64,000 nt of DNA from an uncultured Pelagibacteraceae bacterium. GTDB lineage: Bacteria; Pseudomonadota; Alphaproteobacteria; Pelagibacterales; Pelagibacteraceae. The stretch is from contig CACFQM010000001.1 in assembly GCA_902568425.1 (NCBI GenBank), forward strand, positions 967 to 64,966, read 5' to 3'. A program made the position numbers and the translations under genes. Positions 289 to 57,972 of this stretch are shown piece by piece. The notes beneath the pieces were generated by a model. It saw nothing but the letters and a program-made list of their open reading frames with translations. It was not told the DNA's origin and did not search any database. The number at the start of each line of letters is the position of its first letter. The stretch's first letter is position 1.

Positions 289-299
289 CACCATATATC

Positions 300-327: not shown

Positions 328-354
328 GCCATAAATTTTAACAAGGTTTATTTT

Positions 355-801: not shown

Positions 802-807
802 AATACT

Positions 808-1062: not shown

Positions 1063-1073
1063 ATTAAATTTAA

Positions 1074-3159
<2,086 letters not shown>

Positions 3160-3160
<1 letters not shown>

Positions 3161-4407: not shown

Positions 4408-4409
4408 TA

Positions 4410-4949: not shown

Positions 4950-4954
4950 TAATA

Positions 4955-13723: not shown

Positions 13724-13744
13724 TATTTTAAAAAATAAATTTGC

Positions 13745-15148: not shown

Positions 15149-15154
15149 TTTTTT

Positions 15155-19352: not shown

Positions 19353-19389
19353 TATTTTTAAATCTCATATTAACATAAAAAATTTAAAT

Positions 19390-38159: not shown

Positions 38160-38181
38160 TTTTCTTTTTTCCAACACCTAT

Positions 38182-40012: not shown

Positions 40013-40488
40013 AAATAAAAAGTAATTTAGAACCTTTAATATCTGGAATATCTGCAGCAATAGTTATAGGTATTCTCGCTTTTCTAACTTTAAGAACTTC
40101 AGCTGGAGTATGGTTAATGTTTTCATTTGGAGCAACTGTTTTTCTTGTTTTTGCTCTTTACAATTTAGATACAGCTCAACCAAAGAATATTTTTTGGGGC
40201 CATTTAGTTTCAGTTTTAGTCGGAATTATTTTTAATGAGACTATAGGATTTTCATTTTATTCACTTGGTTTATCGGTTGGTGTTGCTGTAGCACTGATGG
40301 TCTACTTAAAAATTATGCATCCTCCAGCTGCGTCAAATCCAATAGTAGTTTTATTTACTGACGTATCTTTCGAGTACATATTGTTTCCGGTTATATTTGG
40401 CACAATAGCCATAATTCTAATGTCGATTTTTATAAACAGAATAATTTTAAAAAGAAAATATCCAAAAAAGAAGGATTGGTTATATTGA
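40009..40488 (+). CDS. HPP family membrane protein
   Basis: 159 aa with four hydrophobic helices and the eponymous MHPPAASNP motif. Confidence 0.75.
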   Translation: MKIKSNLEPLISGISAAIVIGILAFLTLRTSAGVWLMFSFGATVFLVFALYNLDTAQPKNIFWGHLVSVLVGIIFNETIGFSFYSLGLSVGVAVALMVYLKIMHPPAASNPIVVLFTDVSFEYILFPVIFGTIAIILMSIFINRIILKRKYPKKKDWLY

Positions 40489-41271
40489 TTTTAAGAATTT
40501 ATTTAAAGCCTCTAATAAGTTTTCATTGTACTCCATCATATGATCATCTTCTTTAGGAAAATAAGAGTGTTTAGGCTCATTAGCTTCTAAAAAAACTTTT
40601 TTACCCATTTTAAATGGGACTATTTTATCTTTCTCTCCGTGCATAATTAAAATTGGAACTTTAATATTTTTTAATTTTTTTACAGTTTCGTATCTATCTT
40701 TAAGTAAAAAAGAAACTGGTAAATAGAAATAATAATGTTTGCCTGCGTCAACCATTGATGTGAAAGGAGACTCTAAAATAATTCCGGCAAAATTTTTATT
40801 TTGTGCTACTTCAGCAGAAACACCAGTACCAAGCGACTCTCCGTAAATAATAATTTGTTTATCCTCGACACCTTGTTTGTTTAACCATTTTAAAGCGTCT
40901 CTGGCATCCTGGTATAATCCTGCTTCTGTTGGGTTACCCTCATTTCCGCTGAAGCCTCTATATGCTACGATTAAAAAATTTATCTCAAAATTTTTAATTA
41001 AATTTAGTTTATATATTCTATTACTTAAATTACCTGCATTTCCATGAAAAAATATCATAGTTTTTTTTTGTTTAAGATTCTTTTTGTGAAACCAAGCTTT
41101 TAATTTTTTACCTTCAGATGTAGGAATATAAATTTCCTCGTATGCAAAATTTATTTTGTCTGATGTGTAATTATTTTCAGATGGATGATAAAGTAGATTT
41201 CTTTGGTAAAAAAATACAAAAATTACTATCAGTAAGTAACATAAAATAATTATAGTTGCTGTAGTAAGCAT
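40480..41271 (-). CDS. alpha/beta hydrolase (BEM46/serine aminopeptidase S33-like)
   Basis: N-terminal TM anchor, an HGNAGN oxyanion region, the nucleophile elbow GESLGTG, and a late HGEKD...DDH. The likely start is MLTTATI (ATG 41269-41271). The tracked ORF extends to 41301. Confidence 0.75.
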   Translation of the reverse strand: MLTTATIIILCYLLIVIFVFFYQRNLLYHPSENNYTSDKINFAYEEIYIPTSEGKKLKAWFHKKNLKQKKTMIFFHGNAGNLSNRIYKLNLIKNFEINFLIVAYRGFSGNEGNPTEAGLYQDARDALKWLNKQGVEDKQIIIYGESLGTGVSAEVAQNKNFAGIILESPFTSMVDAGKHYYFYLPVSFLLKDRYETVKKLKNIKVPILIMHGEKDKIVPFKMGKKVFLEANEPKHSYFPKEDDHMMEYNENLLEALNKFLKSI

Positions 41272-41275
41272 ATAT

Positions 41276-42178
41276 TTAAGTTTTTTTTGCAAAATACACA
41301 CCTATTAACACTAATGAAGCACCTAAATAATGAAAACTTTGGAGCTGTTCACCAAAAAAAATTATCCCATAAATCGCCGCATAAATAGTATATAGATAAA
41401 GAGTAAAGCCAGTGAGAGACGCACCTAAATATTTTTGAACCTTTGCATACAAAGTAAAGGCAATTACACCAGGAGAAATTGCTCCAAATAAAACCCAGAA
41501 TGTAAAGTAAATATCAAAGTTGGTTTGACTGATAAAAATTTCTTCCATTATATAAAACGGTAATAGGTATAATGCTCCGAAAAAAGAAATAAGAGTAAAT
41601 CTAATAAAAAAATTAAATTTAAATTTCCAATGAATTAAATATACAGAGTACAAAGCCCACCCTAATGCAGCTCCTAGCATCCATATATCACCAGCTGTAA
41701 ATTTTGTATTTATTAGAAAATTAATATTTCCCTTACATATAATCGCTAAAACTCCAATTATACAAATCACAAGACCAAAAATTTGTTTTGATTTTATCAG
41801 TTCCCTGAGAATAAAAGTGGAAAGTAAAATTATAAAAACAGGTGAAGATGTATATATTATACCCATGTTTGCCATAGTAGTTGTTTGACCGGCAATAAAA
41901 GGGAATGCACCACAAATTCCACAACCCATTAAACCTAAAAAAAATAACTTTGTAAACTCTGGCTTAATTTTTTTAAAATTTTTAAGTATTGGCTTATAAA
42001 AAAAAGGAATTAACAGAAGGAAAGTAGCTACCCATCTCCAGAATGCAAGGGATATAGGGGGAACAAATTCAACCCCGCCTCTAGCAATAATTAAATTACT
42101 AGACATAAAAATTGGTTGTAAAAATAACAAAAAATATGGAAAAATTTTACTATTACTTATTTTTGATGAAGGCTTCAT
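41276..42178 (-). CDS. EamA/DMT superfamily transporter
   Basis: 300 aa with about 10 TM helices in two similar halves, the typical EamA duplication. Confidence 0.8.
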   Translation of the reverse strand: MKPSSKISNSKIFPYFLLFLQPIFMSSNLIIARGGVEFVPPISLAFWRWVATFLLLIPFFYKPILKNFKKIKPEFTKLFFLGLMGCGICGAFPFIAGQTTTMANMGIIYTSSPVFIILLSTFILRELIKSKQIFGLVICIIGVLAIICKGNINFLINTKFTAGDIWMLGAALGWALYSVYLIHWKFKFNFFIRFTLISFFGALYLLPFYIMEEIFISQTNFDIYFTFWVLFGAISPGVIAFTLYAKVQKYLGASLTGFTLYLYTIYAAIYGIIFFGEQLQSFHYLGASLVLIGVYFAKKT

Positions 42179-42332
42179 AAATCATCATAAAAATTACCAA
42201 GCCCATAAGAATGTAAACTGGAAGAACATCAGTAAAACTGATCATCATTGATCTAGTCAATGTAGTTGCTAGCCCTACTAGGAAGGCTATTGCAAGAGAG
42301 CACCCAACTATACTTGTTAATTTATTCATCAT
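42153..42332 (-). CDS. small two-TM membrane protein, not on the ORF track (59 aa, just under the shortest tracked ORFs)
   Basis: Manual translation gives MMNKLTSIVGCSLAIAFLVGLATTLTRSMMISFTDVLPVYILMGLVIFMMIYEAFIKNK*. Tandem ATGs at 42330-42332 and 42327-42329 overlap the amidase stop, and its own stop at 42153-42155 overlaps the EamA start by 26 nt. It fills an otherwise empty 143-nt spacer. Confidence 0.35.
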   Translation of the reverse strand: MMNKLTSIVGCSLAIAFLVGLATTLTRSMMISFTDVLPVYILMGLVIFMMIYEAFIKNK

Positions 42333-43656
42333 CCCTACACTTTTTTTCTAACCAATTTGCAACACCCAGAAATCTTAAATCATCAAGTTTGTTACCAACC
42401 AATTGAACACCTAATGGTAAGTTATTTTCTCCAGTAAGTAAAGGTAGTGATATAGATGGCAAACCCATGTAGGTCCAGACTGTGCAGAACTCAGGGCTGC
42501 CAGTAAATTTTAATCCTTTGTCAGCCACACCTGTGGATGCGGGTGTAATTACTCCATGATAATCCTCGAAAACTTCACTATACGATCTATAGCTCTGTTC
42601 CATAAAATCTTTAGCTTCAGTGTACTGGCTAGCAGAATATTTCATCCCACGTTCAATTGCTTCAATTAATTTTTTCCCAAGCTTGTTTTTTGAATTTTTG
42701 TAGTATTTTTGAAAACTATTTGCCATGTCAGTCTCATGTAAAACCTGCTGGTGTTTGTGTATGTCTTTAAAATAGGATGGCTCATCAAAAACTTCTATAT
42801 GTTTTTTTAATTTTTTTATTAAAAATTGAAATGCTTTTTGAGAGTCTTTGTCGATATTTTTCCAATTTGAAGTTTTGTAAAATATGAATTTAGGATCAAA
42901 ATGAGGGCCTTTTCTACATTCCTCTAACATTCTTTCAGCTGAATAATGGACTGTATCTTTATCGTATAAATCTTTTTTTATGAGACATTTAGTTAATAAA
43001 GCAACGTCTTCTACATTCTTTCCAAAAACTCCGACATGATCAAGTTTCGATGACTGTTTAAGTACACCATTTCTCGATATTAAACCAAACGAAGGTTTAT
43101 AACCAACGACTCCACAGTAAGAAGCAGGTCGGATAATTGAGCCTTTAGTTTGAGTTCCCAAAGACAAAGGAGCCATGTGAGCTGCAACTACAGCTGCTGA
43201 TCCGCTTGAAGAACCACCTGGCGTTCTGGTTTTATCATGTGGGTTAGTTGTTTTTCCTGGATCAAAGTAAGCAAGTTCAGTTGTAACTGTTTTACCCATA
43301 ATTATTGCTCCTGAAATTTTTAATAAATTTACTACCTCAGCATCTGCACTCTCTGACATACCTTTTCGAAGTACCGTTCCACATTCCGTCGGCATATCTT
43401 GCGTTCCAATAATATCTTTTATTCCAATTGGCAATCCATGAAGTGGTCCAAGTGGTTTACCTGATTTTCTATACTCATCTTTTTCTTCGGCTTTTTCTAA
43501 AAGAAGTTTTTTATCAAAGTAGGCCCACGCTTTTACATCTTTTTCAAATTTATTAATTCTGACAATATATTCTTTGCAAGCATCGACACATGAAATCTCA
43601 CCACTTTTTAATTTTTCAGCTAACTCAATAGCTGTCATTGAAAAGATTTTACTCAT
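42322..43656 (-). CDS. amidase-signature (AS) family amidase
   Basis: GGSSSGSAAVVAA Gly/Ser-rich AS motif and an upstream GIKD Lys context. The substrate cannot be determined from sequence. Confidence 0.85.
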   Translation of the reverse strand: MSKIFSMTAIELAEKLKSGEISCVDACKEYIVRINKFEKDVKAWAYFDKKLLLEKAEEKDEYRKSGKPLGPLHGLPIGIKDIIGTQDMPTECGTVLRKGMSESADAEVVNLLKISGAIIMGKTVTTELAYFDPGKTTNPHDKTRTPGGSSSGSAAVVAAHMAPLSLGTQTKGSIIRPASYCGVVGYKPSFGLISRNGVLKQSSKLDHVGVFGKNVEDVALLTKCLIKKDLYDKDTVHYSAERMLEECRKGPHFDPKFIFYKTSNWKNIDKDSQKAFQFLIKKLKKHIEVFDEPSYFKDIHKHQQVLHETDMANSFQKYYKNSKNKLGKKLIEAIERGMKYSASQYTEAKDFMEQSYRSYSEVFEDYHGVITPASTGVADKGLKFTGSPEFCTVWTYMGLPSISLPLLTGENNLPLGVQLVGNKLDDLRFLGVANWLEKKCRDDE

Positions 43657-43665
43657 AATTTAAAT

Positions 43666-45027
43666 TTAATTTGCAAAAAGTAAGTCGGGCAACCAAAGCG
43701 CAATACCAGGAAACATATACATCAGAAACATCGCAAAGATAACAATTAACAAGAATGGCATAATACCGCTAAAAATTTCTAGTAGTTCTACATTTTTAGT
43801 TTGTACACCTTTTAGATAATAAGCGGACATGGCCATGGGCGGTGTTAAAAATGAAGTTTGAAGGTTTAATGCTATAAGCATTGCAAAAAAATATGGGTTC
43901 ACTCCAAAAAATTCCACCAATGGTAAGAATATTGGCACAAATATAATTAATATCTCAGTCCATTCCAAAGGCCATCCTAAAAGAAAGATAATTATTTGAG
44001 TAATAATTAAAAATTGCCAAGGTTGTAAATTCATAGATTTAAAAAAGTGCTCAAATACTTCATGACCGCCTAAATAAGAGAAGACAGATGCAAAGGTCCA
44101 TGAGCCTATAAACAACCACATAATCATTGCTGTAGTTTTTGCTGTTAAAAAAACTGACTCTTTAAAATTTTTCCATTTTAAGGTTTTATAAAAATAAGAT
44201 AGCACTAAAGCACCGAATGCTCCTACAGCTGCTGCCTCGGCTGGTGTTGCAAGACCTCCTAGAATGGTCCCAAGCACTAATATTATTAATGAAAATAATG
44301 GTAGAAATGAAACCAAAACCTCTTTTAAAATTACTGAACGAGGTGGAATATCTTCTGCAGGTGGTTTAGGCGCAATTGAAGGATTTAAATACGCTCTGGT
44401 AACTGCATATAAAATATATAATCCAGCAAGCATTATTCCTGGTAATATTGCAGCAGCAAATAATCTTAAAGGTGATAATTGAGCAATAACTGAATAAACT
44501 ATAAGCATAATGCTTGGAGGAATTAATATTCCAAGACATCCCCCAGAACAAATGACACCAGATGCAAATTTTTTGTCATAGCCTGCTTTTATCATTGCTG
44601 GCCATGCTAAAAGTCCCATTAACGTTACTACAGCTCCAATAATTCCAGTGGCTGTAGAAAATAAAGCGCAGGTTATTAAAGCTGCAACTGCCATAGATGC
44701 AGGCAATCCATGAGATGCTAAACGAATAGCAAAGAACAATCTTGAAACAATTCCGGCTCTTTCAACAAGATAACCCATAAATAAAAATAAAGGTACGGCG
44801 GTTAGAACGGTGTTGTCCATTACAGTGTAGGTGTTTTGTACAAATAATTGAAATATCCTATTATCTAATAGATGTTCCATTCTTGTTGGATCATAGTACG
44901 CGTAATAACCAAACCCCACACCCATCGCCATTAAAGTAAATGCAATAGGAAATCCTAAAAGGACAGCAAAAAGAAATATTGCCATCATTAGAATTGCTAT
45001 TTCTGGATTTGTTAAACTAAATAACAT
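43666..45027 (-). CDS. dctM: TRAP transporter large permease subunit
   Basis: 453 aa and polytopic. It shows the DctM-like pattern and overlaps dctQ by 11 nt. Confidence 0.9.
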   Translation of the reverse strand: MLFSLTNPEIAILMMAIFLFAVLLGFPIAFTLMAMGVGFGYYAYYDPTRMEHLLDNRIFQLFVQNTYTVMDNTVLTAVPLFLFMGYLVERAGIVSRLFFAIRLASHGLPASMAVAALITCALFSTATGIIGAVVTLMGLLAWPAMIKAGYDKKFASGVICSGGCLGILIPPSIMLIVYSVIAQLSPLRLFAAAILPGIMLAGLYILYAVTRAYLNPSIAPKPPAEDIPPRSVILKEVLVSFLPLFSLIILVLGTILGGLATPAEAAAVGAFGALVLSYFYKTLKWKNFKESVFLTAKTTAMIMWLFIGSWTFASVFSYLGGHEVFEHFFKSMNLQPWQFLIITQIIIFLLGWPLEWTEILIIFVPIFLPLVEFFGVNPYFFAMLIALNLQTSFLTPPMAMSAYYLKGVQTKNVELLEIFSGIMPFLLIVIFAMFLMYMFPGIALWLPDLLFAN

Positions 45028-45601
45028 CTTTTTGATCCTCGTCTTGTGAAGTTCTCATTAATATTTTTTCTGTTTCTTCTGCAACAACCATTCTTGCTGG
45101 CCAGTGACCAGTTTTAATACAAATTATTGATCTACATACTTCGCTAATTCCTTGAATAATTAATAGAACACCAGCTGCAGGTATTAAAGATTTTGCCATA
45201 TAAATTTGTATTTGCGCAGGACTATTCCAGCTTGTTTCTTTTATTTTCCAAGCTAAGGCTGCATATTCATATCCATAAAATGCTAAAGCAAATACACCTG
45301 GAAAGAAAAAGATAAAATATAAAACTAGATCTATATATCCTTGAGTTCTGGGTTTAAATAATCTGTAAAGTACGTCACCTCTTACATGAGCTTCGGTAGA
45401 TAATGTGTAAGCTCCTGCCATCATAAATATCGCACCGTACATTTGTAAACTAAAATCAAAATTCCATAATGTTGGTGCATTAAAAGCATATGCCATTACA
45501 ACTTCGTAACAAGTTCCTCCCATCAAAATAACTATGCACCAAGAGAAGGCCTTGCCGACTGAAGTGCTAAGATGATCTGCAAAAACGATAAATTCCCTCA
45601 T
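45017..45601 (-). CDS. dctQ: TRAP transporter small permease subunit
   Basis: 194 aa with four TM helices, located between the TRAP binding-protein and DctM genes. Confidence 0.8.
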   Translation of the reverse strand: MREFIVFADHLSTSVGKAFSWCIVILMGGTCYEVVMAYAFNAPTLWNFDFSLQMYGAIFMMAGAYTLSTEAHVRGDVLYRLFKPRTQGYIDLVLYFIFFFPGVFALAFYGYEYAALAWKIKETSWNSPAQIQIYMAKSLIPAAGVLLIIQGISEVCRSIICIKTGHWPARMVVAEETEKILMRTSQDEDQKDVI

Positions 45602-45636
45602 AATTTATGTTAGTCCAATTAAATTATAATTTCCAT

Positions 45637-45666
45637 AAAAAAAGGGGGCTTCAAAAAGCCCCCTTT
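45637..45666 (-). terminator. Rho-independent terminator between dctP and dctQM
   Basis: The minus-strand RNA reads GGGGGCUU-UUUG-AAGCCCCC followed by UUUUUUU. The stem is 45644-45651 / 45656-45663, and it starts 17 nt after the dctP stop. Confidence 0.75.
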
Positions 45667-45682
45667 AATTTTTAAAAAGCTA

Positions 45683-46840
45683 CTAAATTTTAACTTTAGC
45701 TATAGCACCGAACTCATTTTCGTATGCCAATTTATAATTTGGCTGATTCATGAGTAAGTACTTCATTACTCTTTTAGCATAAGCTTTTTGTGAAGCTACA
45801 ATTTTTGCAAAGAATGCGTCTTTTTTAACAAAGTCTCCTATAACTTTGTCCCATCCTTTTAATTGTTGAGCTAAGATTTCATCTGAAGTTTGATAAACGT
45901 TTACTTTGTGTTGGTTCATCAATTTAGATAAGTCAGCTGAGTATCTTACTAATGCTTTAAAGTAGTTGTCTGTATTCGCAGCGTACGCAGCATTTTTTAG
46001 AATAGCCTGATGTTGTGGGCTTAATCCATTAAATGTTTTTGTGTTCACAGGAATTTCAAACATCTCTTGAGATTGGTGGAAGCTACCTAAGTGATAATGC
46101 TTAGATACATCTTGCATACCAAACTGTGAGTCTGAAGTTGGGTTATTAAATTCCGCAGCTTCGATCAAACCAGTTTTCATTGCTGGCTGAATTTCTCCAC
46201 CTGGAAGTTGTCTTACAACCATTCCCATAGCTGTTAATACGTTAGTCGCTAGACCAACTGTTCTATATTTCATACCTTTAACATCAGACACTTTAGTTAC
46301 GTTCTTTTTGAACCAACCAAATGGCTGTGCTGGCATTGGCATATGGAAAAGACCAACGTAGTTGAAGCCAACTTTAGAAAGAGTTTCTTCGTAAAGTTTT
46401 CTTCCTCCACCGTACTCCATCCACCCCATAACTTCTTGAGATGACATTCCGTACGAAGGTCCTGTTCCGAACAATGATGCTGCTGGATTTTTTCCGTACC
46501 AGTATGCAGTTACCCAGTGTCCCATATCTAGAACTCCTGAACTTACCGCTTGACCGATTTCAGATGTTTTAACAACAGCTCCAACTGGTTGAAGATCAAT
46601 CTTCAATTCGCCAGCTGACATGTCGCCTACCATTTTTGCAAAGTCGCCAGCCATTTCGAAGAATATATTAGCTCCAGAAGGCCAAGCTGCTTGCATCTTT
46701 AAAGTTTTAGGAGCACCAAATGCTACATTCGGCATTGCAATAGTTGCTGCCGCTGCTGCACCAGTTGCTGCTGCTGCTTTAAAGAACTTACGTCTAGAAG
46801 GAGTTTTAACTCTCTTCAGCGTTTTTTCTTTTTTTGACAT
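45683..46840 (-). CDS. dctP: TRAP transporter substrate-binding protein with a twin-arginine signal peptide
   Basis: 385 aa. It has the N-terminal SRRKFFKAAAATGAAAAATIAMPNVAFG Tat-type signal and a DctP-family body. A GGGAGA Shine-Dalgarno sequence lies 4 nt upstream of the ATG. Confidence 0.88.
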   Translation of the reverse strand: MSKKEKTLKRVKTPSRRKFFKAAAATGAAAAATIAMPNVAFGAPKTLKMQAAWPSGANIFFEMAGDFAKMVGDMSAGELKIDLQPVGAVVKTSEIGQAVSSGVLDMGHWVTAYWYGKNPAASLFGTGPSYGMSSQEVMGWMEYGGGRKLYEETLSKVGFNYVGLFHMPMPAQPFGWFKKNVTKVSDVKGMKYRTVGLATNVLTAMGMVVRQLPGGEIQPAMKTGLIEAAEFNNPTSDSQFGMQDVSKHYHLGSFHQSQEMFEIPVNTKTFNGLSPQHQAILKNAAYAANTDNYFKALVRYSADLSKLMNQHKVNVYQTSDEILAQQLKGWDKVIGDFVKKDAFFAKIVASQKAYAKRVMKYLLMNQPNYKLAYENEFGAIAKVKI

Positions 46841-46852
46841 ATTTGTCTCCCT

Positions 46853-46866
46853 TAGTTAATTAACTA
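46853..46866. promoter_or_regulatory. perfect 14-bp palindrome next to the dctP ribosome-binding site (candidate operator)
   Basis: TAGTTAATTAACTA is self-complementary. It ends 2 nt from the GGGAGA SD, in the 107-nt spacer upstream of dctP. Confidence 0.25.
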
Positions 46867-46947
46867 GTCGAATTATTTAAGCACAAATATATTTGAGAGT
46901 CTCGGTCAGAATTAATAAAGTTTTGATAGATTCAATTCTAGATTGTG

Positions 46948-47901
46948 CTAATTAACTTTATTTTTAGCCATTCCTGTTTTGAAAAATTCATCAATGTTAT
47001 CAATTGCAAGATCTGCCATGGCAGTTCTTGTTTTTTTTGTAGCACTACCAAGATGTGGTAAAATAAATGCTGTCGGTTGCTTTAAATATTCCGGGTGAAT
47101 TTTTGGCTCACCTTTATAGACGTCTAATCCTATAGCGTAAATTTTACGACTTACCAAAGCTTGTACCATAGCTTCATCATCTATCATATCTCCTCTTGCA
47201 ACATTTGTTATAATTGCACCGGTTGGAAAATATTCTAAGGTTTCTTTATTAATTATGTCTTTAGTTTCTTTTGTGGCTGGACAACAAATTGATAATACAT
47301 CTGAAACAGAGAATAGACTTTTTATATTTTCGTGAAAAATTGCGCCCATCTCTTTGTCGTTGCTTAATTTAGTTCTATTTCTATAATGTATTTCCATTCC
47401 AAAACTTTTTGCTATTTTTGCTAAAGCTCTTCCAATTCTACCCATACCTAAAATACCAAGTCTTGATCCTGTGAGTTGCTTGCCAATTAAAAAATCTGCT
47501 GACCATTTCCAATTTTCTTTTTTTACCCAATCCATTCCCTCACTTGCTCTTCTACATGCGCCAAGAATTAATAACATAGCAATTTCTGCAGTGGCATCGG
47601 TTAAAACATCAGGTGTATTAGTAACTATTATATTTCTTTTTTTTGCTGCCTCGATATCGATATTCCCAAAACCAACAGCAAAATTAGATATTATTTTTAC
47701 AGTTTCAGGAAGTTTCTCAATTGTTTCTTTATCTATTTTATCTGTAAGTGATGACAGAATACCATCACAGCCTTTTGATAATTCAATTAGTTTTTTTTGA
47801 GAATATAATTCATCATTTGAGTTAAAATGCGGATTAAATAATTTAGAAGCTTTATCCTCGCAAGATCTCAATAATTTTCTAGTTACAAGGACTTTTTTCA
47901 T
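46948..47901 (-). CDS. D-isomer-specific 2-hydroxyacid dehydrogenase (glyoxylate/hydroxypyruvate reductase-like)
   Basis: NAD motif GILGMGRIGRALA and the family blocks (ITNVARGDMIDDEA, LPHLGSAT). Confidence 0.88.
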   Translation of the reverse strand: MKKVLVTRKLLRSCEDKASKLFNPHFNSNDELYSQKKLIELSKGCDGILSSLTDKIDKETIEKLPETVKIISNFAVGFGNIDIEAAKKRNIIVTNTPDVLTDATAEIAMLLILGACRRASEGMDWVKKENWKWSADFLIGKQLTGSRLGILGMGRIGRALAKIAKSFGMEIHYRNRTKLSNDKEMGAIFHENIKSLFSVSDVLSICCPATKETKDIINKETLEYFPTGAIITNVARGDMIDDEAMVQALVSRKIYAIGLDVYKGEPKIHPEYLKQPTAFILPHLGSATKKTRTAMADLAIDNIDEFFKTGMAKNKVN

Positions 47902-47908
47902 TTTGATT

Positions 47909-49282
47909 TTAATTCAAATCGAAAATTTTACCTGGGTTCATTATATTGTTTGGGTCAAGTGTTCTTTTTATAGATTTCATAATTGGAATATTATCTCCAT
48001 GTTCTTTTATAAGATATTCTTTTTTATGAAGTCCTACTCCATGTTCTCCAGTGATTGTTCCATTTAATTCCAAAGTTTTTTTAATCAGTAAATCACTAAA
48101 CTCTCTTATCTTCTTATAGGTTTCTTTTTTTTGGGGATCATAAGGCAAAACTACATGAAAATTTCCATCACCTAGGTGACCAACCATTGGAGCTCTGAGA
48201 CCAAATTTTTTTGTGACGTCCTCTGCAAACTTCACGCACTCAACTATTTTAGAAATTGGAAGACATACATCTGTAGAATAAACTCTGCCGTTTTTAATTA
48301 ATGCTTTCACAGAATAATATATATCCCAACGAGCTTGCCATAACTTATTTCTTTCTTCTAAATCTTTTGCCCATTTAAAAGCACTTCCTTTATTCTCTTT
48401 AGATATTTCTTCAACTATTTTGATATTTTCTTTATTAGAGGACTCCGATCCATGAAATTCGAAAAATAAAGTCGGTAAAACTTTCATATCTTTTAACTTT
48501 GAATAATTAATGCTTATATCCATTTGTTCTTTATTAAGCATTTCAATTCTGGCTATCGGCACGCCATACTGAATCACTTGTTGTGCTGCTTGAACCGCAT
48601 CTTCCAAAGATGGAAAATGACAAACTGCACTCATTATACTTTCTGGGATTGGAGAGAGTCTTAATTGTATTTCCGTAATTATTCCAAGTGTTCCCTCGGA
48701 TCCAATAAATAAATTAGTTAAGTTATATCCAGCAGAAGTTTTTTTTGTTCTACTTCCAGTCTTAATAATATCACCATTAGGAAGTACTACTGTAAGACCA
48801 GTGATTACAGTCTTCATGGTTCCATATTTTACAGCCATAGTTCCTGATGCAGATGTTGATGCCATACCGCCTATTGCAGCGTTTGCTCCAGGATCGATTG
48901 GAAAGAAAACACCATCTTCTCTTAAATAATCATTCAATTGCTCTTTAGTAACGCAAGCTTGAACTCTGCAATCAAAATCCTCAGCGTTTACACTTAAAAC
49001 CTTGTTCATTTTTTCTAAGGAAATTGTTATTCCCTTATCATTACCTACAACATTACCCTCTAAAGAGGTCCCGGTACCAAATGGAACTACAGGAACCTTG
49101 TGATCATTACAAAGTTTAAGAATTTTTGAAACTTCCTCATTAGTTTCTGGAAAAACTACAGCTTTTGATAATACTGGATCATATGTATCTTCACCTCTAG
49201 CATAGTTTGTTCTTGTAGAAACTGAGGTGGAAAATCTACCGTTAAAAATTTTTTTTAATTCTGATTGTATTTGTTCGTTCAT
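47909..49282 (-). CDS. FAD-linked oxidase (GlcD / D-lactate dehydrogenase-like)
   Basis: 457 aa. It has the FAD_binding_4 N-domain (VVPFGTGTSLEG), a C-terminal FAD-oxidase domain (GHLGDGNFH, GEHGVG), and ends with the typical NPGKIF. Confidence 0.85.
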   Translation of the reverse strand: MNEQIQSELKKIFNGRFSTSVSTRTNYARGEDTYDPVLSKAVVFPETNEEVSKILKLCNDHKVPVVPFGTGTSLEGNVVGNDKGITISLEKMNKVLSVNAEDFDCRVQACVTKEQLNDYLREDGVFFPIDPGANAAIGGMASTSASGTMAVKYGTMKTVITGLTVVLPNGDIIKTGSRTKKTSAGYNLTNLFIGSEGTLGIITEIQLRLSPIPESIMSAVCHFPSLEDAVQAAQQVIQYGVPIARIEMLNKEQMDISINYSKLKDMKVLPTLFFEFHGSESSNKENIKIVEEISKENKGSAFKWAKDLEERNKLWQARWDIYYSVKALIKNGRVYSTDVCLPISKIVECVKFAEDVTKKFGLRAPMVGHLGDGNFHVVLPYDPQKKETYKKIREFSDLLIKKTLELNGTITGEHGVGLHKKEYLIKEHGDNIPIMKSIKRTLDPNNIMNPGKIFDLN

Positions 49283-49328
49283 TTTTTTCTATAATGTTAT
49301 TAAATTATATAGAAAAAATATACCTTAA

Positions 49329-51644
49329 TTAACCAAGCATCTTTTTGATTTTTTCTAAGGCTTGTGAGATATTATCGCTAGAAGCTGCAAAACTAAATCT
49401 AACATAATCTTTAGCTGTTTTTCCAAATGCTGTTCCCGGTACAATAGCTACGCCTGCTTCATGCATACATTTTTTAGCAAATTCAGCACCATTCATTCCT
49501 GTTCCTACGACTTTAGGAAAAGCATAAAATGCACCTCCAGGTAAACTACATTCTACACCTGGTAAATTGTTTAAGCCTTCGTGAATAAGTTTTCTTCTTA
49601 TTGTAAATTTTCTCATCATTTCAATAATAGAATCATCTGGACCGTCTAAAGCGGCAATGCCTGCAAACTGAGCAGCTGCATTTACACATGAAACGCTATT
49701 TATTACCAATTTATTTACATGTTCTACAAGATTTTTTGGCCAGAAACTCCAACCTAATCTCCATCCTGTCATTGAATAGGCTTTACTCCAACCTTCAAGA
49801 ACAATTAGTCTCTCTCTTAATTCTGGATAATTAAAAAAAGTAGGCATTTCTTTTCCATCAAAGATTTGTCTACTATAAATTTCATCACTTAAAATTGTCA
49901 CATGAGGATGTTTTTTTAATCCCTCTGCTAGAACATCGATATCTGATTTATCAACAAAACTGCCAGTTGGATTATTTGGATTAATTAAAACTAGTAATTT
50001 TGTTTTATCAGTTATTAAGGATAAAATTTCCTCAGGATTAAATTTTAAATCTTTATCTTTAGTCAAATCGTATGGAACTGCTTTAGCTCCAGTAAAATTG
50101 ATCATAGACTCATAGATTGGAAATGCAGGTGTTGGGTGAATTATTTCTACACCCGGTTCACCAAAGCATTGAATTGCATAACTCATTGTAGGTTTTCCAC
50201 CTGGCATAATAATTATTCTTTCGGGATCAATGTCTTGATTGTATAGTTTTTTAATTTTTCTTGTGACTGATTGCCTGCATTCAAGAATTCCGTTTGATAA
50301 AACATAACCATGATGACCATCGTCCAAAGCTTTTTTTGCAGCGTCAACAATATGTTTTGGAGTTTTAAAATCTGGCTGACCTAATCCCAGATGTATCATT
50401 GGTTTGCCTTTGGCTTCTAATTTTTTTGCTTCAGCAAGAACGCTAAAAGCTGTCTCTGTTCCTAACCTATCTAAACTTTTTGCAAGTTTCATAATTACCT
50501 GTATGCGATATTTGTTTTTTTTTAAATCTTTTATTGTTTTACATCCTAATAATATCATGTCACGTCTAATCTCATCATGCATTCTTTGCAGCAAAGCTTC
50601 AACACCTTTTTGACCCCCCGCGCCTAGGGCAAATAAGTAACCTTTCCCAAAACTACACGCAGTAGCACCTAAAGATAAAGCTTTTAACACATGGGTTCCT
50701 CTTCTTATCCCGCCGTCTAAAATTATTTCAAGTTTGCCACCTACAGCATCAGCTATAGCTGGTAATTGATCAAAGGGAGATCTTGAACCATCTAATTGCC
50801 TTCCTCCATGATTAGATAACATTATTGCCGAGGCTCCGATCTCAACTGCTCTTTTTGCATCTGCAACAGACATAACTCCTTTTATTGCAAATGGTCCTCC
50901 CCATCTTTTAATACAATACTCAGCATCTGCCCAGTTCATCTTCGGATCATATTGTTCGTTAATATATTCCATCACACCTTTAGCAATACTACTTCCTTTT
51001 TTTGTAAAATGAGAAACGTTTGCTAACTGAAACTTTTCATGAGTTAAATAATTTATTGACCACATTGGATGAGTAGCAAAACTTAAAAGGCTTTTTAAAG
51101 TTAATTTAGGTGGTGTAGTAAATCCCCATCTATGATCTCTCTCTCTGTTACCTGCCACAACTGTATCCACCGTTAAACACATTGCCTTGAAGCCTGATCT
51201 TTTACAACGATCAATTAAATTATCGGTTAAACCTTTGTCTTTATGAATGTAAAGTTGAAACATCTTTGGGCCACCTGATATATTTGAAATTTCCTCTATT
51301 GAAGTGGTAGACATAGTTGACATGCTATAAATTGTTCCAAGTTTTTCAGCAGCTCTTGCACTCGCTTTATCTCCATCATGATGATAAAGCCTTTGCATTG
51401 CAGTTGGAGATAGAAATAGCGGCATTTTAATTTTTTGACCAAATACTTCAGTGCTCATATCTGGTTCTCCAACACTTGTAAGAATACTTGGTACTAAATC
51501 ACATTTTGAAAATGCTTCTGTATTTCTTTTCAGAGTGGCTTCATCATCTGAGCCACCATCAATATAATGAAAAATGGGTGCGGGAAGATTTTTTTTTGCT
51601 AATTTTCTAAAGTCATCAAAATTATAACAATCTTTTAAACTCAT
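49329..51644 (-). CDS. fusion ORF: FMN-dependent alpha-hydroxyacid dehydrogenase/oxidase domain (aa 1-384, nt 50493-51644) joined to a class I/II PLP aminotransferase domain (aa 385-771, nt 49329-50492)
   Basis: The N-domain has SNHGGRQLDG and LDGGIRRGTHVLKAL (LldD/glycolate-oxidase family). The C-domain starts at Met385 (ATG 50490-50492) as MKLAKSLDRLGTETAF...GLGQPDF...NPNNPTG...SKAYSMTGWRLGW. No in-frame stop separates them. A T9/A9 run at 50515-50523 is a caveat. Confidence 0.7.
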   Translation of the reverse strand: MSLKDCYNFDDFRKLAKKNLPAPIFHYIDGGSDDEATLKRNTEAFSKCDLVPSILTSVGEPDMSTEVFGQKIKMPLFLSPTAMQRLYHHDGDKASARAAEKLGTIYSMSTMSTTSIEEISNISGGPKMFQLYIHKDKGLTDNLIDRCKRSGFKAMCLTVDTVVAGNRERDHRWGFTTPPKLTLKSLLSFATHPMWSINYLTHEKFQLANVSHFTKKGSSIAKGVMEYINEQYDPKMNWADAEYCIKRWGGPFAIKGVMSVADAKRAVEIGASAIMLSNHGGRQLDGSRSPFDQLPAIADAVGGKLEIILDGGIRRGTHVLKALSLGATACSFGKGYLFALGAGGQKGVEALLQRMHDEIRRDMILLGCKTIKDLKKNKYRIQVIMKLAKSLDRLGTETAFSVLAEAKKLEAKGKPMIHLGLGQPDFKTPKHIVDAAKKALDDGHHGYVLSNGILECRQSVTRKIKKLYNQDIDPERIIIMPGGKPTMSYAIQCFGEPGVEIIHPTPAFPIYESMINFTGAKAVPYDLTKDKDLKFNPEEILSLITDKTKLLVLINPNNPTGSFVDKSDIDVLAEGLKKHPHVTILSDEIYSRQIFDGKEMPTFFNYPELRERLIVLEGWSKAYSMTGWRLGWSFWPKNLVEHVNKLVINSVSCVNAAAQFAGIAALDGPDDSIIEMMRKFTIRRKLIHEGLNNLPGVECSLPGGAFYAFPKVVGTGMNGAEFAKKCMHEAGVAIVPGTAFGKTAKDYVRFSFAASSDNISQALEKIKKMLG

Positions 51645-52795
51645 ACTTTTCTAAATCTCAAATTTTTTCTGCTTAGATCACTTATCTTAGTACATCCCAT
51701 GAGCTTCATATCTCTCTCTAATTCTACACGATACTGGTTAAGAGCTCTTTCAACGCCAGCTTGGCCAGCTGCTGCAAGGGCGTAAAGATATAATCTCCCG
51801 CCTGCACAGGCTTTAGCTCCCATTGATAAAGCTTTGAGCATATGTGTTCCTCTTTGAATACCGCCTTCACAAATTACATCTATTTTGTCTCCAACAGCGT
51901 CGATAATTTCTGCTAATTGATCAAAAGGAGATCTAGCCCCATCTAGTTGTCTTCCTCCATGATTTGAAACCATAATTCCAGAACATCCAATATCAACTGC
52001 TCTTTTTGCATCTTCAACACTCATAACTCCTTTTAGAGCAAAATGTCCTCCCCACTTAGAACAAAGATTTTCAGCATCCTTCCAGTTCATTGATTGATCT
52101 AGCATTGTTGAAAAATAATTTCCGACGGATGTAGCAGTACTAGTTCCCTCCTTTACATGATCTTGAAGATGAGGTAATTCGAATTTTCCTCTAGTAACGT
52201 AATTTATTCCCCACATTGGTTTCATTGCAAAACTAATCAAACTTGAAAGTGTAAGTTTAGGTGGTGATGTAAACCCAGTTCTTAGATCTCTTTCTCTATT
52301 ACCTCCAGTTATCGTATCGACGGTTAGTGCCATAACATCAAATTTTGCAGCTTTAACTCTTTCTACAATTGCATTGTTTAGACCTTTATCTTTATGATAA
52401 TAAAACTGAAATAATTTTGGAGTATTTACAAGGGATGAGATTTCCTCAACACTTACAGTTGCCAATGATGAAACGCCAAACATTGTGTTAAACTTTTGTG
52501 CTGCTTGTCCAACAGCTCTTTCTCCTTGATAATGAAATAGTCTCTGTAAAGCTGTAGGTGAACAATAAAAAGGTAAATCTAATTTTTTTCCAAATATTGT
52601 TGTAGATAGATCAACTTGTTCCACACCTCTTAAAACATTTGGCACTAAATCGACTTCATTAAATGCCTCTGTGTTTCTTTTATAAGTAACTTCATCATCA
52701 GCTGCACCATCTATGTAATGAAAAATTGGAGATGGTAACTTTCTTTTTGCAAGTTTTCTAAAGTCACTAAAGTTGTGGCAATCTTTTAATCCCAT
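51641..52795 (-). CDS. FMN-dependent alpha-hydroxyacid dehydrogenase/oxidase (LldD/glycolate-oxidase family), paralog 2
   Basis: 384 aa with SNHGGRQLDG and EGGIQRGTHMLKAL. It aligns without gaps to the N-domain of the downstream ORF, and its stop overlaps that ORF's start (ATGA). Confidence 0.9.
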   Translation of the reverse strand: MGLKDCHNFSDFRKLAKRKLPSPIFHYIDGAADDEVTYKRNTEAFNEVDLVPNVLRGVEQVDLSTTIFGKKLDLPFYCSPTALQRLFHYQGERAVGQAAQKFNTMFGVSSLATVSVEEISSLVNTPKLFQFYYHKDKGLNNAIVERVKAAKFDVMALTVDTITGGNRERDLRTGFTSPPKLTLSSLISFAMKPMWGINYVTRGKFELPHLQDHVKEGTSTATSVGNYFSTMLDQSMNWKDAENLCSKWGGHFALKGVMSVEDAKRAVDIGCSGIMVSNHGGRQLDGARSPFDQLAEIIDAVGDKIDVICEGGIQRGTHMLKALSMGAKACAGGRLYLYALAAAGQAGVERALNQYRVELERDMKLMGCTKISDLSRKNLRFRKV

Positions 52796-57651: not shown

Positions 57652-57972
57652 TTAATTAGACGGTTTATAATAAACCGATCCCCGTTTTTCTGAAAAGAAC
57701 TCATCTACTAAAGGGTGTCTGATTGGTTCTTTCGAGTTATCAGTTATTAAATTTTGTTCAGAAACATATGCTTCATAAGTAATTTCATTATTCTCGGCCA
57801 ATAAATGATAGAAGGGCTGATCTTTTCTCGGTCTAACATCTTTTGGGATTGATTGATACCATTCCTCAGAATTATTAAATTCAAAGTCAACGTCATAAAT
57901 TACACCCCTAAAATTAAAGTGTCTATGTTTAACAACATTTCCAATTGAAAATTTAGCTTTTTTTGAATCCAT
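57652..57972 (-). CDS. hspQ: heat shock protein HspQ / hemimethylated-DNA-binding YccV family
   Basis: FSIGNVVKHRHFNFRGVIYDVD...PFYHLL is the YccV-domain pattern. Length is 106 aa. Confidence 0.8.
   Translation of the reverse strand: MDSKKAKFSIGNVVKHRHFNFRGVIYDVDFEFNNSEEWYQSIPKDVRPRKDQPFYHLLAENNEITYEAYVSEQNLITDNSKEPIRHPLVDEFFSEKRGSVYYKPSN

Follow-up and report, generated by a model that had tools for sequence, protein, structure and literature searches.

The minus-strand gene block at 42153-52795 of the window (the whole 64,000-nucleotide stretch of an uncultured Pelagibacteraceae genome analysed here) is best read, with moderate confidence, as a composite of a variant hydroxy-acid/amino-acid locus (module A, 46948-52795) and an independently inherited TRAP-amidase module (module B, 42153-46947). 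The initial annotation had presented the block as one integrated unit. This is not supported, since the TRAP-amidase module is present in only 54 of 72 SAR11 loci, is preceded by a promoter-like element and a palindrome of its own, and is exchanged separately. A locus of the type of module A has already been proposed in SAR11; module B is a widespread, uncharacterised set of importer and amidase that merits study and is conserved far beyond SAR11. The substrates and fluxes discussed below are all ones that we infer. The genes of module A are as follows.

51641..52795, minus strand: LldD2, second FMN-dependent L-2-hydroxyacid dehydrogenase paralog (384 aa; PF01070, 424.9 bits)
50495..51644, minus strand: LldD1, FMN-dependent L-2-hydroxyacid dehydrogenase (PF01070, 442 bits)
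49329..50492, minus strand: class I aminotransferase, AspC-like, 387 aa (PF00155, 182.8 bits)
47909..49282, minus strand: single-subunit FAD D-2-hydroxyacid (D-lactate) dehydrogenase, LDHD/Dld type (PF01565 and PF02913)
46948..47901, minus strand: NAD(P) D-2-hydroxyacid dehydrogenase (HADH), glyoxylate/hydroxypyruvate reductase type (GhrB / D-glycerate dehydrogenase; PF02826, PF00389)

All minus-strand ORFs lie in the order and at the coordinates first assigned to them, as an ORF check verified, and the family calls agree with Pfam and NCBIfam. The tight co-directional packing that had been remarked on is real but not above chance: gaps and coding density equal the genome baseline (97% coding density in the window, median same-strand gap of 0.5 nt), and close packing is therefore no evidence for an operon. 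The minus-strand run around the block, 19 genes over 17.5 kb, also takes in genes with no relation to it: the ccm operon, PagL and a YccV-like gene (57652-57972). Few same-strand gaps of the window are as large as those of 107 and 81 nt. The block sits in a SAR11 (Pelagibacteraceae) core-genome region flanked by the ccm operon/PagL and FtsY. Using 80 related Pelagibacteraceae loci as the comparison set for synteny and modularity, we find the neighbourhood kept across the family, but not as one unit, given the partial presence of the TRAP-amidase module.

One apparent gene fusion disappears in this comparison. A 771-aa ORF (49329-51644; FMN_dh plus Aminotran_1_2, with LldD1 as its N-terminal half) does exist in the window sequence, as the initial annotation described, but the fusion rests on one extra A in the following run.

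50515..50523, minus strand: A9 homopolymer (T9 on the plus strand), one A above the nearest relatives

The three closest relatives (L077, L078 and L079; 98-100% amino-acid identity) have A8 here, and LldD1 (379-386 aa) and the aminotransferase are two separate genes in all 80 related loci. Deleting one A yields a 382-aa LldD1 ending ...IKDLKKTNIAYR (...KTNIAYR), whose C-terminus agrees with the relatives, with 2 nt separating its stop from the ATG of the aminotransferase. With A9, the last LldD1 codons are shifted, the ancestral TAA stop at 50495-50497 is out of frame and the frame is joined to the aminotransferase. The 'fusion' is a +1 frameshift in the A-run, the extra A having arisen either by sequencing error or by a mutation private to this genome.

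Within module A, the catalytic motifs FHYIDG, FQLYIHKD, GNRERD, IKGV and SNHGGRQLD are readable in LldD1. LldD2 scores below the NCBIfam LldD equivalog cut-offs, keeps the catalytic residues of glycolate oxidase (GOX; Y24, Y129, D157, R164, K230, H254 and R257) and has Leu at the GOX W108 position. The aminotransferase, whose closest solved structures are Pyrococcus and Phormidium Asp/aromatic aminotransferases, is 80-100% identical across the 80 loci (86-91% to those of the glcDEF type), and by sequence comparison is the ortholog of the SAR11 'aspC' adjoining glcDEF in other strains. In HTCC1062, a route from glycolate to glycine with glyoxylate as the intermediate has been proposed for aspC (SAR11_0279)-glcDEF (Smith 2013, PMC3870248, after an earlier proposal; Becker 2019, PMC6775983), with aspC encoding the glyoxylate aminotransferase, and AspC protein is up 2-fold under N limitation (PMC3870248). 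The general chemistry first suggested for the block, in which a 2-hydroxy acid is oxidised to the 2-oxo acid and then converted into an amino acid, fits this SAR11 proposal for the orthologous aminotransferase (PMC3870248). The statement that the gene combination matches no named pathway has to be given up, since the same LldD-like/aminotransferase pair adjoins glcDEF in 28 sister genomes, as in HTCC1062 (the locus type was confirmed by NCBIfam, where GlcF scores 437 bits and the cut-off is 333).

The window shares with the HTCC1062 locus the position between ccm/PagL and FtsY, an LldD-like gene and the GhrB-type dehydrogenase; unlike it, the window is without glcD, glcE and glcF, has the LDHD-type FAD dehydrogenase and an extra LldD, and carries the TRAP-amidase module after HADH, where several glcDEF-type strains hold other transporters. 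The LDHD-like gene takes the place of glcDEF at the locus. LldD2 is restricted to loci with this replacement, occurring together with the LDHD-like gene in 45 of 45 loci and in 0 of 28 glcDEF loci, and 5-8 type switches reconstructed on trees of five marker genes suggest that the exchange took place several times. Strain HTCC7211 is likewise described in the literature as being without glcDEF. The FAD enzyme has the two-domain FAD-oxidase fold with the HxGDGNxH and GEHGVG motifs, and its best solved match is mouse mitochondrial D-lactate dehydrogenase (LDHD; E=7.8e-125, 420 bits). It is placed after the aminotransferase like GlcD, but reaches 348.7 against the GlcD equivalog cut-off of 567.9 and has neither GlcE nor GlcF as partners, and therefore no Fe-S subunit.

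On this reading, module A is the SAR11 small hydroxy-acid/oxo-acid/amino-acid locus made of an LldD-like FMN dehydrogenase, an AspC-like aminotransferase and a GhrB-type reductase, in which, in the window, two enzymes free of Fe-S clusters, the LDHD-type dehydrogenase and LldD2, stand in place of glcDEF. This variant may oxidise D-/L-lactate-type substrates to pyruvate, which would then be aminated to alanine, and the aminotransferase could still aminate glyoxylate. The window FMN enzymes differ from plant glycolate oxidase in having Leu or Met at Trp108 and the longer loop of membrane dehydrogenases; the call of lactate over glycolate would hang on that single residue, which we take to be a specificity position.

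HADH stands at the junction of the two modules, and its closest solved structures are 4g2n, the D-glycerate dehydrogenase 1gdh and glyoxylate reductases. The three 2-hydroxyacid oxidoreductase families had been named correctly, but the NAD enzyme is of the glyoxylate/hydroxypyruvate-reductase type; because it is of this type and travels with TRAP-amidase genes outside SAR11, it is unlikely to act as a third D-hydroxy-acid oxidase. A GhrB-type gene is also present in SAR11 loci without TRAP. Since the gene is tied to both modules, their boundary is not clean, and functional coupling of the two to some degree is possible.

The order HADH-TRAP-amidase is fixed wherever a SAR11 locus has TRAP, and HADH and TRAP are directly adjacent in nearly all 54 TRAP loci (three genes intervene in L014), as would fit a single system spanning the whole block, in which TRAP import, the amidase and the three oxidoreductases supply 2-oxo acids that the aminotransferase turns into an amino acid with the nitrogen kept. 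We consider such a system unlikely, as 18 of the 72 SAR11 loci have no TRAP module although LldD-like gene, aminotransferase and HADH are all kept, and other strains fill the slot after HADH with an ABC system, an MFS transporter or another kind of TRAP. Outside SAR11, the gene most often found beside TRAP-amidase modules is a GhrB-type dehydrogenase (13-14 loci), tartronate-semialdehyde-reductase-type genes also recur, and Hyi-like and glycerate kinase genes are found; these are glyoxylate/glycerate-pathway enzymes and share their area of metabolism with glcDEF and with the aminotransferase proposed to act on glyoxylate, which speaks for a single system, but no LldD-like or LDHD-like gene lies beside the module there, and an aminotransferase does so once. 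In that one locus (L084), the nearest non-SAR11 aminotransferase homolog (53% identity) lies two genes after the TRAP-small-ORF-amidase set, which hints at a link between the aminotransferase and module B; L090 and L091, the nearest relatives of the L084 amidase, are without the aminotransferase.

The features of module B, including the 107-nt spacer and the terminator-like hairpin that the initial annotation had reported, are the following.

46841..46947, minus strand: 107-nt spacer with conserved elements (alignment of 23 distinct loci)
46896-46902, minus strand: conserved AGACTCT in the spacer
46875-46883, minus strand: TGCTTAAAT, resembling an extended -10
46854-46865, minus strand: perfect palindrome AGTTAATTAACT
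45683..46840, minus strand: DctP, Tat-exported TRAP solute-binding protein, TakP (COG4663) group (PF03480 and TAT signal)
45641..45666, minus strand: strong terminator-like hairpin with T-run between DctP and DctQ (11-bp stem, 6 G-C pairs, 4-nt loop; the genome has about 30% G+C)
45017..45601, minus strand: DctQ, TRAP small membrane subunit (PF04290, 84.5 bits)
43666..45027, minus strand: DctM, TRAP large membrane subunit (PF06808, 259 bits; TIGR00786 274.4 against a cut-off of 268.45)
42322..43656, minus strand: amidase-signature amidase, nearest to malonamidase E2 (PF01425, 290 bits)
42153..42332, minus strand: 59-aa protein with two transmembrane helices

The aligned spacers also contain the RBS AAGGGAG. 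The window has a single copy of the palindrome, and 37 SAR11 loci have one each, directly before DctP; a 38th match lies just past HADH in L050, a locus with a different TRAP, and in L014 the palindrome travels with the TRAP genes. Module B thus appears to own a promoter-like element and a putative palindromic operator-like site within one of the largest same-strand spacers of the window, which argues further against a single system, and it may form a self-contained transcription unit for the TakP-like, Tat-exported TRAP importer, the amidase resembling malonamidase E2 and the two-helix protein. The hairpin is probably an attenuator giving a surplus of binding-protein transcript and hence, probably, more binding protein per membrane subunit.

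The closest solved structures to DctP are TakP (2hzk, 2e-41), the ketoacid-binding 7ug8 and the lactate-binding TTHA0766, and the importer can be retained as an organic-acid TRAP system, since its group, that of TakP and TTHA0766, binds 2-oxo/2-hydroxy monocarboxylates through a cation. With Rhodobacter sphaeroides TakPQM (an alpha-keto-acid TRAP) and the Ca2+-lactate-binding TTHA0766 it shares the DctP family and the Tat signal; the carboxylate-binding Arg177 and Tyr100 and the cation ligands Gln156 and Glu214 of TakP are kept. However, DctP is only ~29% identical to TakP, has Gln for Glu240 and differs in the pocket (F40W, I47F, Y99A, T153M, P243E and V245F). These pocket residues are conserved inside a distinct DctP subfamily, the binding-site signature is kept from SAR11 to Rhizobiales, and metagenome protein clusters of this DctP number thousands of members. 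In SAR11, the window-type DctP set is always followed by the amidase and the small two-helix protein, a pairing that to our knowledge is not found with TakP.

The best solved match of the amidase is malonamidase E2 (MAE2) of Bradyrhizobium japonicum (1ock, E=2.4e-58), with which it shares the Lys / cis-Ser / Ser triad and the unusual GTQTxGSxIRPA motif, including an Arg right before the Pro, at the position of MAE2 Arg158, whose role we assume from the known enzyme. The similarity is strong mainly over the core (residues 33-219) and weak in the C-terminal half, and the window amidase, of predicted activity, differs from MAE2 in being linked to a TRAP importer. As MAE2 acts on a carboxylate-bearing amide, this similarity is consistent with the earlier suggestion that the amidase acts on amides of acids. 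The amidase gene lies directly after DctM in 47 of 47 SAR11 loci and in 44 of 51 non-SAR11 metagenome loci. A small hydrophobic ORF follows it in 47 of 47 SAR11 loci and in 46 of 62 non-SAR11 loci; in a Rhizobium operon without the amidase, this ORF comes straight after DctM. The 59-aa protein has no match among Pfam families, but profile-profile comparison links the SAR11 and non-SAR11 small proteins (96.7% probability, E=4.7e-10; reversed and column-shuffled controls, <=3.4%), and on this comparison it belongs to a conserved small-protein family attached to the TRAP subfamily of this DctP. The order DctPQM-amidase-small ORF also occurs on Rhodobacterales plasmids. In L078, the module is 59-82% identical and the flanking genes are 96-99% identical, and it has been exchanged as a unit (allelic replacement).

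The DctM-amidase pairing, extending to phylogenetically remote loci, and the joint exchange are hard to explain without a common substrate, and they weigh against the block being a set of unrelated neighbours in a streamlined genome, with the TRAP system importing plain 2-oxo/2-hydroxy monocarboxylates (pyruvate, lactate, glyoxylate or glycolate, after the precedent of TakP and TTHA0766) and the amidase acting on a cytoplasmic metabolite instead of the import. The closest solved DctP relatives do bind pyruvate, other 2-oxo acids and lactate, SAR11 requires pyruvate or its precursors (PMC6775983), and close packing is uninformative in this genome. The Rhizobium TRAP has the same pocket signature without an amidase in the operon, so the compound taken up does not have to be an amide. 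We nevertheless hold unrelated neighbours to be quite improbable, as the DctP pocket also differs from that of TakP at five lining positions, new polar Gln and Glu included. Under the composite reading, module B probably acts on a small carboxy-amide headed by an alpha-oxo or alpha-hydroxy group; candidates for import would be oxamate-, malonamate- or tartronamate-type compounds, or else a 2-oxo-omega-amide. Amide cleavage would release ammonium, and the carbon skeleton would pass to GhrB-type dehydrogenases.

The block has members of the broad enzyme families that include sulfolactate dehydrogenases and cysteate aminotransferases, so that it could in principle be a sulfonate module, with the TRAP system importing sulfolactate, DHPS or isethionate, the dehydrogenases forming sulfopyruvate and the aminotransferase cysteate. 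The sole characterised SAR11 TRAP binding protein, SAR11_0864, binds isethionate and DHPS and requires Ca2+ (PMC11485210, PMC13335735), but proteins of its type are reported beside hpsNOP-type genes (PMC13335735), and the block holds no hpsN, hpsO or hpsP and no desulfonating enzyme. As glcDEF occupies the same position in sister loci and the amidase would be left without explanation, we regard this as very improbable.

At the family level, the composite block also resembles the mandelamide pathway of Pseudomonas putida, in which mandelamide hydrolase and (S)-mandelate dehydrogenase, encoded in one cluster, lead from an amide to a 2-hydroxy acid and on to a 2-oxo acid. Both sets cluster an amidase-signature amidase with an FMN-dependent 2-hydroxyacid dehydrogenase; mandelamide, however, is aromatic without a second carboxylate, and no TRAP importer is present there. 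The combination of enzyme types (FMN 2-hydroxyacid oxidase family, class I aminotransferase, D-glycerate dehydrogenase-type reductase and carboxy-amide amidase) is further shared with the plant photorespiratory set of glycolate oxidase, glyoxylate aminotransferases and hydroxypyruvate reductase together with the asparagine/glutamine transaminase-omega-amidase route (PMC5485471). This likeness is one of enzyme type: the window amidase is of the amidase-signature and not the nitrilase family, and an uptake system is attached.

Two further genes follow module B.

41276..42178, minus strand: EamA-family (DMT) transporter (PF00892)
40480..41301, minus strand: membrane-anchored alpha/beta hydrolase (Hydrolase_4 and Abhydrolase_1 matches)

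Both appear to be mere neighbours, with no link to the block seen. The EamA gene was not seen beside module B in the non-SAR11 loci examined; among SAR11 loci of the window's type, counting the 28 that reach far enough, it comes after the small ORF in 26. The hydrolase, probably unrelated to the system, is a conserved neighbour of FtsY and stays beside it where EamA is missing (L015, L037).

The block lies on the minus strand and comprises an oxidoreductase-aminotransferase part (module A, 46948-52795) and a transporter-amidase part (module B, 42153-46947), beyond which lie two further genes.

Features of the block and the two genes beyond it
51641-52795, minus strand: FMN-dependent 2-hydroxyacid dehydrogenase (LldD2)
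49329-51644, minus strand: 771-aa ORF with FMN_dh and class I aminotransferase domains
47909-49282, minus strand: two-domain FAD oxidase (LDHD type)
46948-47901, minus strand: D-2-hydroxyacid dehydrogenase (HADH)
46841-46947, minus strand: spacer, 107 nt
45683-46840, minus strand: DctP with Tat signal
45641-45666, minus strand: terminator-like hairpin between DctP and DctQ
45017-45601, minus strand: DctQ
43666-45027, minus strand: DctM
42322-43656, minus strand: amidase-signature amidase
42153-42332, minus strand: 59-aa two-helix ORF
41276-42178, minus strand: EamA transporter
40480-41301, minus strand: alpha/beta hydrolase

The gene families, their order, the 107-nt spacer and the DctP-DctQ hairpin had been described accurately in the initial annotation. 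However, the tight packing it noted is no sign of an operon here, since 97% of the window is coding, the median same-strand gap is 0.5 nt, and the minus-strand run holding the block extends over 19 genes, the ccm operon among them. Against this background, the 107-nt and 81-nt gaps rank among the largest same-strand gaps of the window, and the size of the former argues for a transcription-unit boundary before DctP. Upstream, the block is bordered by ccmC-H and a PagL-like gene; beyond the alpha/beta hydrolase lie convergent HPP, FtsY and DapF genes. The G+C content of the window is about 30%, and its nearest relatives are exclusively Pelagibacteraceae genomes. At Rfam gathering thresholds, no match was obtained within the block, with only sub-threshold sRNA noise around the hairpin. 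As would fit a SAR11 origin, the window also has the ffh sRNA motif (RF01793; 38176-38228, minus strand; 52.2 bits, gathering score 35) immediately before the ffh gene (36810-38177).

The 771-aa ORF, previously read as joining an LldD-like protein to an aminotransferase, results from a one-base frameshift. In all 80 related SAR11 loci, the LldD-like gene (LldD1) stops before the aminotransferase ATG and the two genes are separate. The window carries a run of nine A residues (50515-50523), whereas its three nearest relatives (98-100% amino-acid identity) carry eight and read GATTT-A8-CAAAT...AGG TAA TT ATG. Removal of one A restores a 382-aa protein ending in IKDLKKTNIAYR before the stop codon, and this C-terminus fits the pattern of the other 79 ORFs. 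Among 5.8 billion proteins searched, there was no full-length homolog of the 771-aa ORF; the sole match with both domains, a 572-aa fragment on a 2-kb contig (P0001), pairs the N-terminal part of an LldD-like protein with aminotransferase pieces, lacks two internal stretches present in the window, and is probably an assembly chimera. Together, the separate genes in 80/80 loci, the A9 vs. A8 difference and the single match rule out a fusion conserved among relatives, and the frameshift is not a feature of the lineage but stems either from a sequencing error in the homopolymer or from a private mutation. This result keeps a false fusion enzyme out of annotations. In 75 of 80 loci, the two genes share a frame, their spacer length being divisible by 3, which suggested programmed read-through, but this excess most likely arose from the ranking of the loci: as tblastn can run one alignment across an in-frame stop, the loci listing favored same-frame gene pairs, and three out-of-frame loci with 98-100% identity (L077-L079) were placed last. 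In several lineages (L030, L031, L045, L050, L053-L059 and others), the two genes are separated by a 105-nt spacer, absent in the window, with a conserved, promoter-like ATAGACA...TTTTCGT.TAG.TTT element (TAGACA, 17 nt, TAGGTT); the aminotransferase may thus have its own promoter there.

Both FMN enzymes of module A match PF01070 over nearly the whole profile (LldD1, 442.2 bits, positions 1-346 of 350; LldD2, 424.9 bits, 1-349 of 350). Alignment with spinach glycolate oxidase (GOX) places Tyr24, Tyr129, Asp157, Arg164, Lys230, His254 and Arg257 unchanged in LldD2, and LldD1 shows the same catalytic motifs. However, the position of GOX Trp108, a determinant of small-substrate specificity, is Leu in LldD2 and Met in LldD1, placing both outside the GOX subtype; Leu at this position presumably marks lactate-preferring enzymes. 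Like membrane-bound LldD and mandelate dehydrogenase, the two proteins have about 22 extra residues in loop 4, and they score below the cut-offs for E. coli-type LldD (NF033901/PRK11197; 260.6 and 301 bits vs. 550, and 294.8 and 331.8 bits vs. 376). The FAD enzyme, with FAD_binding_4 and FAD-oxidase_C domains, appears from its sequence to be of the LDHD/Dld type: mouse LDHD matches residues 15-453 (E=7.8e-125), the protein is far nearer to mitochondrial D-lactate dehydrogenase than to glycolate oxidase, and its score against the GlcD equivalog TIGR00387 (348.7) falls below the cut-off of 567.9. Neither GlcE nor GlcF is present in the window; all three GlcDEF subunits are present in sister loci. 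HADH (PF02826 and PF00389) groups with GhrB and D-glycerate dehydrogenase; its top structure match is the uncharacterised 4g2n, followed by 1gdh and glyoxylate reductases, and it stays below equivalog cut-offs (258.6 vs. 455). The aminotransferase is a generic class I enzyme near archaeal aspartate/aromatic aminotransferases. The window cassette would be expected to oxidise L- and D-lactate-type substrates without an iron-sulfur subunit. E. coli GlcDEF also serves D-lactate, and the SAR11 glcDEF cassette presumably serves glycolate (and D-lactate).

Mapping the window proteins onto the 80 SAR11 loci revealed a constant frame (ccm-PagL ... LldD1-aminotransferase ... HADH ... hydrolase-FtsY) into which one of two mutually exclusive cassettes is set. 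In the window type, LldD2 upstream and the single-subunit FAD enzyme downstream co-occur (45/45 loci); the alternative consists of glcD-glcE-glcF without LldD2 (28/28 loci; e.g., 12343-16368 in locus L018, vs. 47909-49282 plus 51641-52795 in the window), and the GlcF of these sister loci exceeds the NCBIfam cut-off. On neighbor-joining trees built from the aminotransferase, LldD1, HADH, PagL and CcmF, both cassette types are intermixed, implying 5-8 switches. Since the LldD2 and LDHD-type pair has no iron-sulfur subunit, it might be an iron-sparing replacement of GlcDEF. The aminotransferase is orthologous to, and occupies the same chromosomal position as, that of the SAR11 aspC-glcDEF locus, and glcDEF, absent from the window, is present in the 28 sister loci; in module A, the window thus carries an allelic variant of that locus, which the SAR11 literature has discussed before. 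The earlier claim that the combination fits no named pathway is not supported, since a named locus corresponds to it. Strain HTCC1062 carries the glcDEF-type cassette where the window has LldD2 and the LDHD-type enzyme; its 'aspC' beside glcDEF has been proposed to aminate glyoxylate to glycine, and nitrogen limitation raises the protein 2-fold (PMC3870248). HTCC7211 reportedly lacks glcDEF, and its glycine requirement is unmet by a glycolate-producing Prochlorococcus strain. The exchange of glcDEF may explain such strain differences in the use of glycolate vs. lactate, e.g., between HTCC1062 and HTCC7211.

Module B follows its own pattern. TRAP genes occur in 54 of the 72 SAR11 loci that extend far enough, together with either cassette type; in 47/47 loci, the amidase directly follows DctM, and in 47/47 it is itself followed by a small hydrophobic ORF. 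Within the spacer before DctP are a promoter-like element conserved among SAR11 loci (AGACTCT...TGCTTAAAT, 46875-46902) and, just upstream of DctP, a perfect 12-nt palindrome, AGTTAATTAACT (46854-46865). The palindrome is found once per locus, directly before DctP, in 37 SAR11 loci, and both elements are kept down to 61% DctP identity; no regulator gene lies near the palindrome. In L014, a locus from the complete genome nBUS_29, the palindrome travels with the TRAP genes despite three inserted genes. These (17452-19632) encode a PVC-type haem-binding protein, a small ORF and a cytochrome-c-like ORF between HADH and TRAP. In L078, flanking genes 96-99% identical to those of the window enclose a DctP, DctQ, DctM and amidase with identities of only 76%, 69%, 82% and 59%, indicating that the module was replaced as a unit; recombination seems to have exchanged the entire TRAP-amidase module for another allele.

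Beyond SAR11, DctP and the amidase have their best plasmid matches in shared records, with the genes in the same order (Qingshengfaniella, Pseudorhodobacter), each with a 52-aa two-helix ORF after the amidase, and a Rhizobium operon combines DctPQM with a 60-aa two-helix ORF, without the amidase. A metagenome scan seeded by non-SAR11 amidases yielded 80 loci: of 51 whose sequence reaches far enough upstream, 44 have a TakP-like DctM immediately before the amidase, and a hydrophobic ORF of 40-85 aa is found at the same place in 46/62. The commonest neighbor is a GhrB-type dehydrogenase (13-14 loci, seven with a protein 43-49% identical to the window HADH), followed by a tartronate-semialdehyde-reductase-like gene (5 loci), a family III CoA-transferase (two cases), and a hydroxypyruvate-isomerase-like gene and a type II glycerate kinase with a GntR regulator (one each). 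LldD-like and LDHD-like genes were never neighbors of module B in the non-SAR11 loci examined, and no conserved neighbors were found for LldD-like (58-62% identity) or aminotransferase (45% identity) homologs. An aminotransferase accompanies module B in one case only, L084, a GC-rich JGI metagenome contig of 9070 bp. It encodes on one strand (12-5760) DctM, a 65-aa two-helix ORF, the amidase, PanB, the aminotransferase (53% identical to that of the window) and a mandelate-racemase-family protein, the small ORF here lying between DctM and the amidase. The neighborhood is thus conserved as a frame in the 80 SAR11 loci and as a DctM-amidase pair beyond them, but not as a whole, with TRAP in 54/72 loci and the LldD- and LDHD-like genes beside module B only within SAR11 in this comparison.

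DctP (PF03480, with the Tat-signal model TIGR01409) has the fold and ligand features of TakP-type proteins (COG4663); its nearest solved structures are TakP, another keto-acid-binding protein and the lactate-binding TTHA0766. TakP residues Arg177, Tyr100, Gln156 and Glu214 are the same in DctP. However, the pocket is changed (E240Q, P243E, V245F, T153M, F40W, I47F and Y99A), so that DctP lacks the hydrophobic pocket and Glu240 on which the aliphatic 2-oxo-acid specificity of TakP is based. The altered signature (Trp, Met, Glu, Phe) is common to a subfamily from SAR11, Rhodobacterales and Rhizobium, and the metagenome protein clusters of DctP have thousands of members; in large protein collections, DctP and the amidase retrieved SAR11-like sequences alone, none with an informative name. 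Identity with SAR11_0266, a binding protein that resisted expression (PMC11485210), is ruled out, as SAR11_0266-0268 form an ABC sugar system. The gene context also differs from that of SAR11_0864, the isethionate/DHPS TRAP binding protein: by the neighbor genes that define HpsKLM and DHPS-isethionate TRAP systems (PMC13335735), neither the block nor the 80 SAR11 loci contain hpsN, hpsO, hpsP or glycyl-radical genes, and the neighbors are HADH and the amidase. HTCC1062, the strain used in a recent survey of SAR11 binding proteins, seems to have a single TRAP binding protein, encoded at a different locus (PMC11485210); the window TRAP is therefore uncharacterised.

The amidase is closest to malonamidase E2 (MAE2). 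Its GIKD, GGSSSGS and GTQTKGSIIRPA segments align with MAE2 Lys62, Ser131, Ser155 and Arg158, predicting an MAE2-like Lys/cis-Ser/Ser triad with an Arg158 equivalent; the GTQTxGSxIRPA motif, whose Arg aligns with Arg158, is common to both enzymes. The 59-aa ORF has no Pfam match. An AtzE-AtzG arrangement, in which the amidase has a soluble GatC-like partner, is ruled out because this ORF encodes a hydrophobic two-helix membrane protein. Profile comparison with 26 non-SAR11 sequences indicates that the SAR11 and non-SAR11 small proteins are homologous (96.7% probability, E=4.7e-10; reversed and shuffled controls, ≤3.4%); the initial comparison, with three non-SAR11 sequences only, was not significant (2.5%).

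Module B is therefore a conserved unit and, as far as the literature searched shows, undescribed: no publication was found there that ties a TRAP transporter to an amidase and the candidate amides. The strict DctM-amidase pairing from SAR11 to soil bacteria points to a defined nitrogen-bearing substrate, probably a small carboxylate with an amide and an alpha-oxo or alpha-hydroxy head. In eukaryotes, the combination of an aminotransferase, a 2-hydroxyacid dehydrogenase and an amidase acting on 2-oxo/2-hydroxy omega-amides is established (PMC5485471), and by analogy this scheme is one candidate for the chemistry encoded in the window. The earlier interpretation of the block as one system for uptake, oxidation and transamination seems to us unlikely. 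Functionally, the GhrB-type gene may be part of both modules, leaving room for such integration, but the block does not behave as one unit; of the original account, the genes and families are confirmed and the interpretation is upheld in part, whereas the fusion and the single unit are not. We also propose, as a speculative reading that taken as a whole we consider improbable, that the DctPQM-amidase-small-protein set, often with a GhrB-type dehydrogenase, would be an unrecognised, widespread uptake-and-deamidation system for oxamate, malonamate, tartronamate or transamination products, for instance 2-oxosuccinamate and 2-oxoglutaramate. In it, the two-helix protein of 52-65 aa would add a fourth, new component to this TRAP subfamily, and LldD2 with the LDHD-type enzyme would be an iron-sulfur-free GlcDEF replacement swapped in and out repeatedly. 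If true, most surface-ocean SAR11 would have a dissolved-organic-nitrogen source missing from current models. SAR11 dominates the surface ocean, where its transporters set which dissolved compounds are consumed, and an uncharacterised TRAP carried by about three in four of the related genomes examined is a concrete target for ligand screening; this abundant TRAP-amidase-small-protein module and the recurrent replacement of glcDEF are the main points of interest.

In the 80 SAR11 loci, housekeeping genes are far less conserved than the metabolic and transport genes beside them, whose median identities to the window are 92% (DctM), 90% (DctP) and 87% (aminotransferase, LldD2 and LDHD-like enzyme); for CcmF, PagL and FtsY, the medians are 53%, 59% and 60%. 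The slot after HADH is variable and holds different uptake genes in different strains (e.g., L055 14900-17521, L018 17335-18552, L045 15794-18573 and L030 17396-18310), its contents including a Zn alcohol dehydrogenase with a 511-aa binding protein, an MFS transporter, a different DctP-type TRAP and a HIBADH/tartronate-semialdehyde-reductase-like gene.
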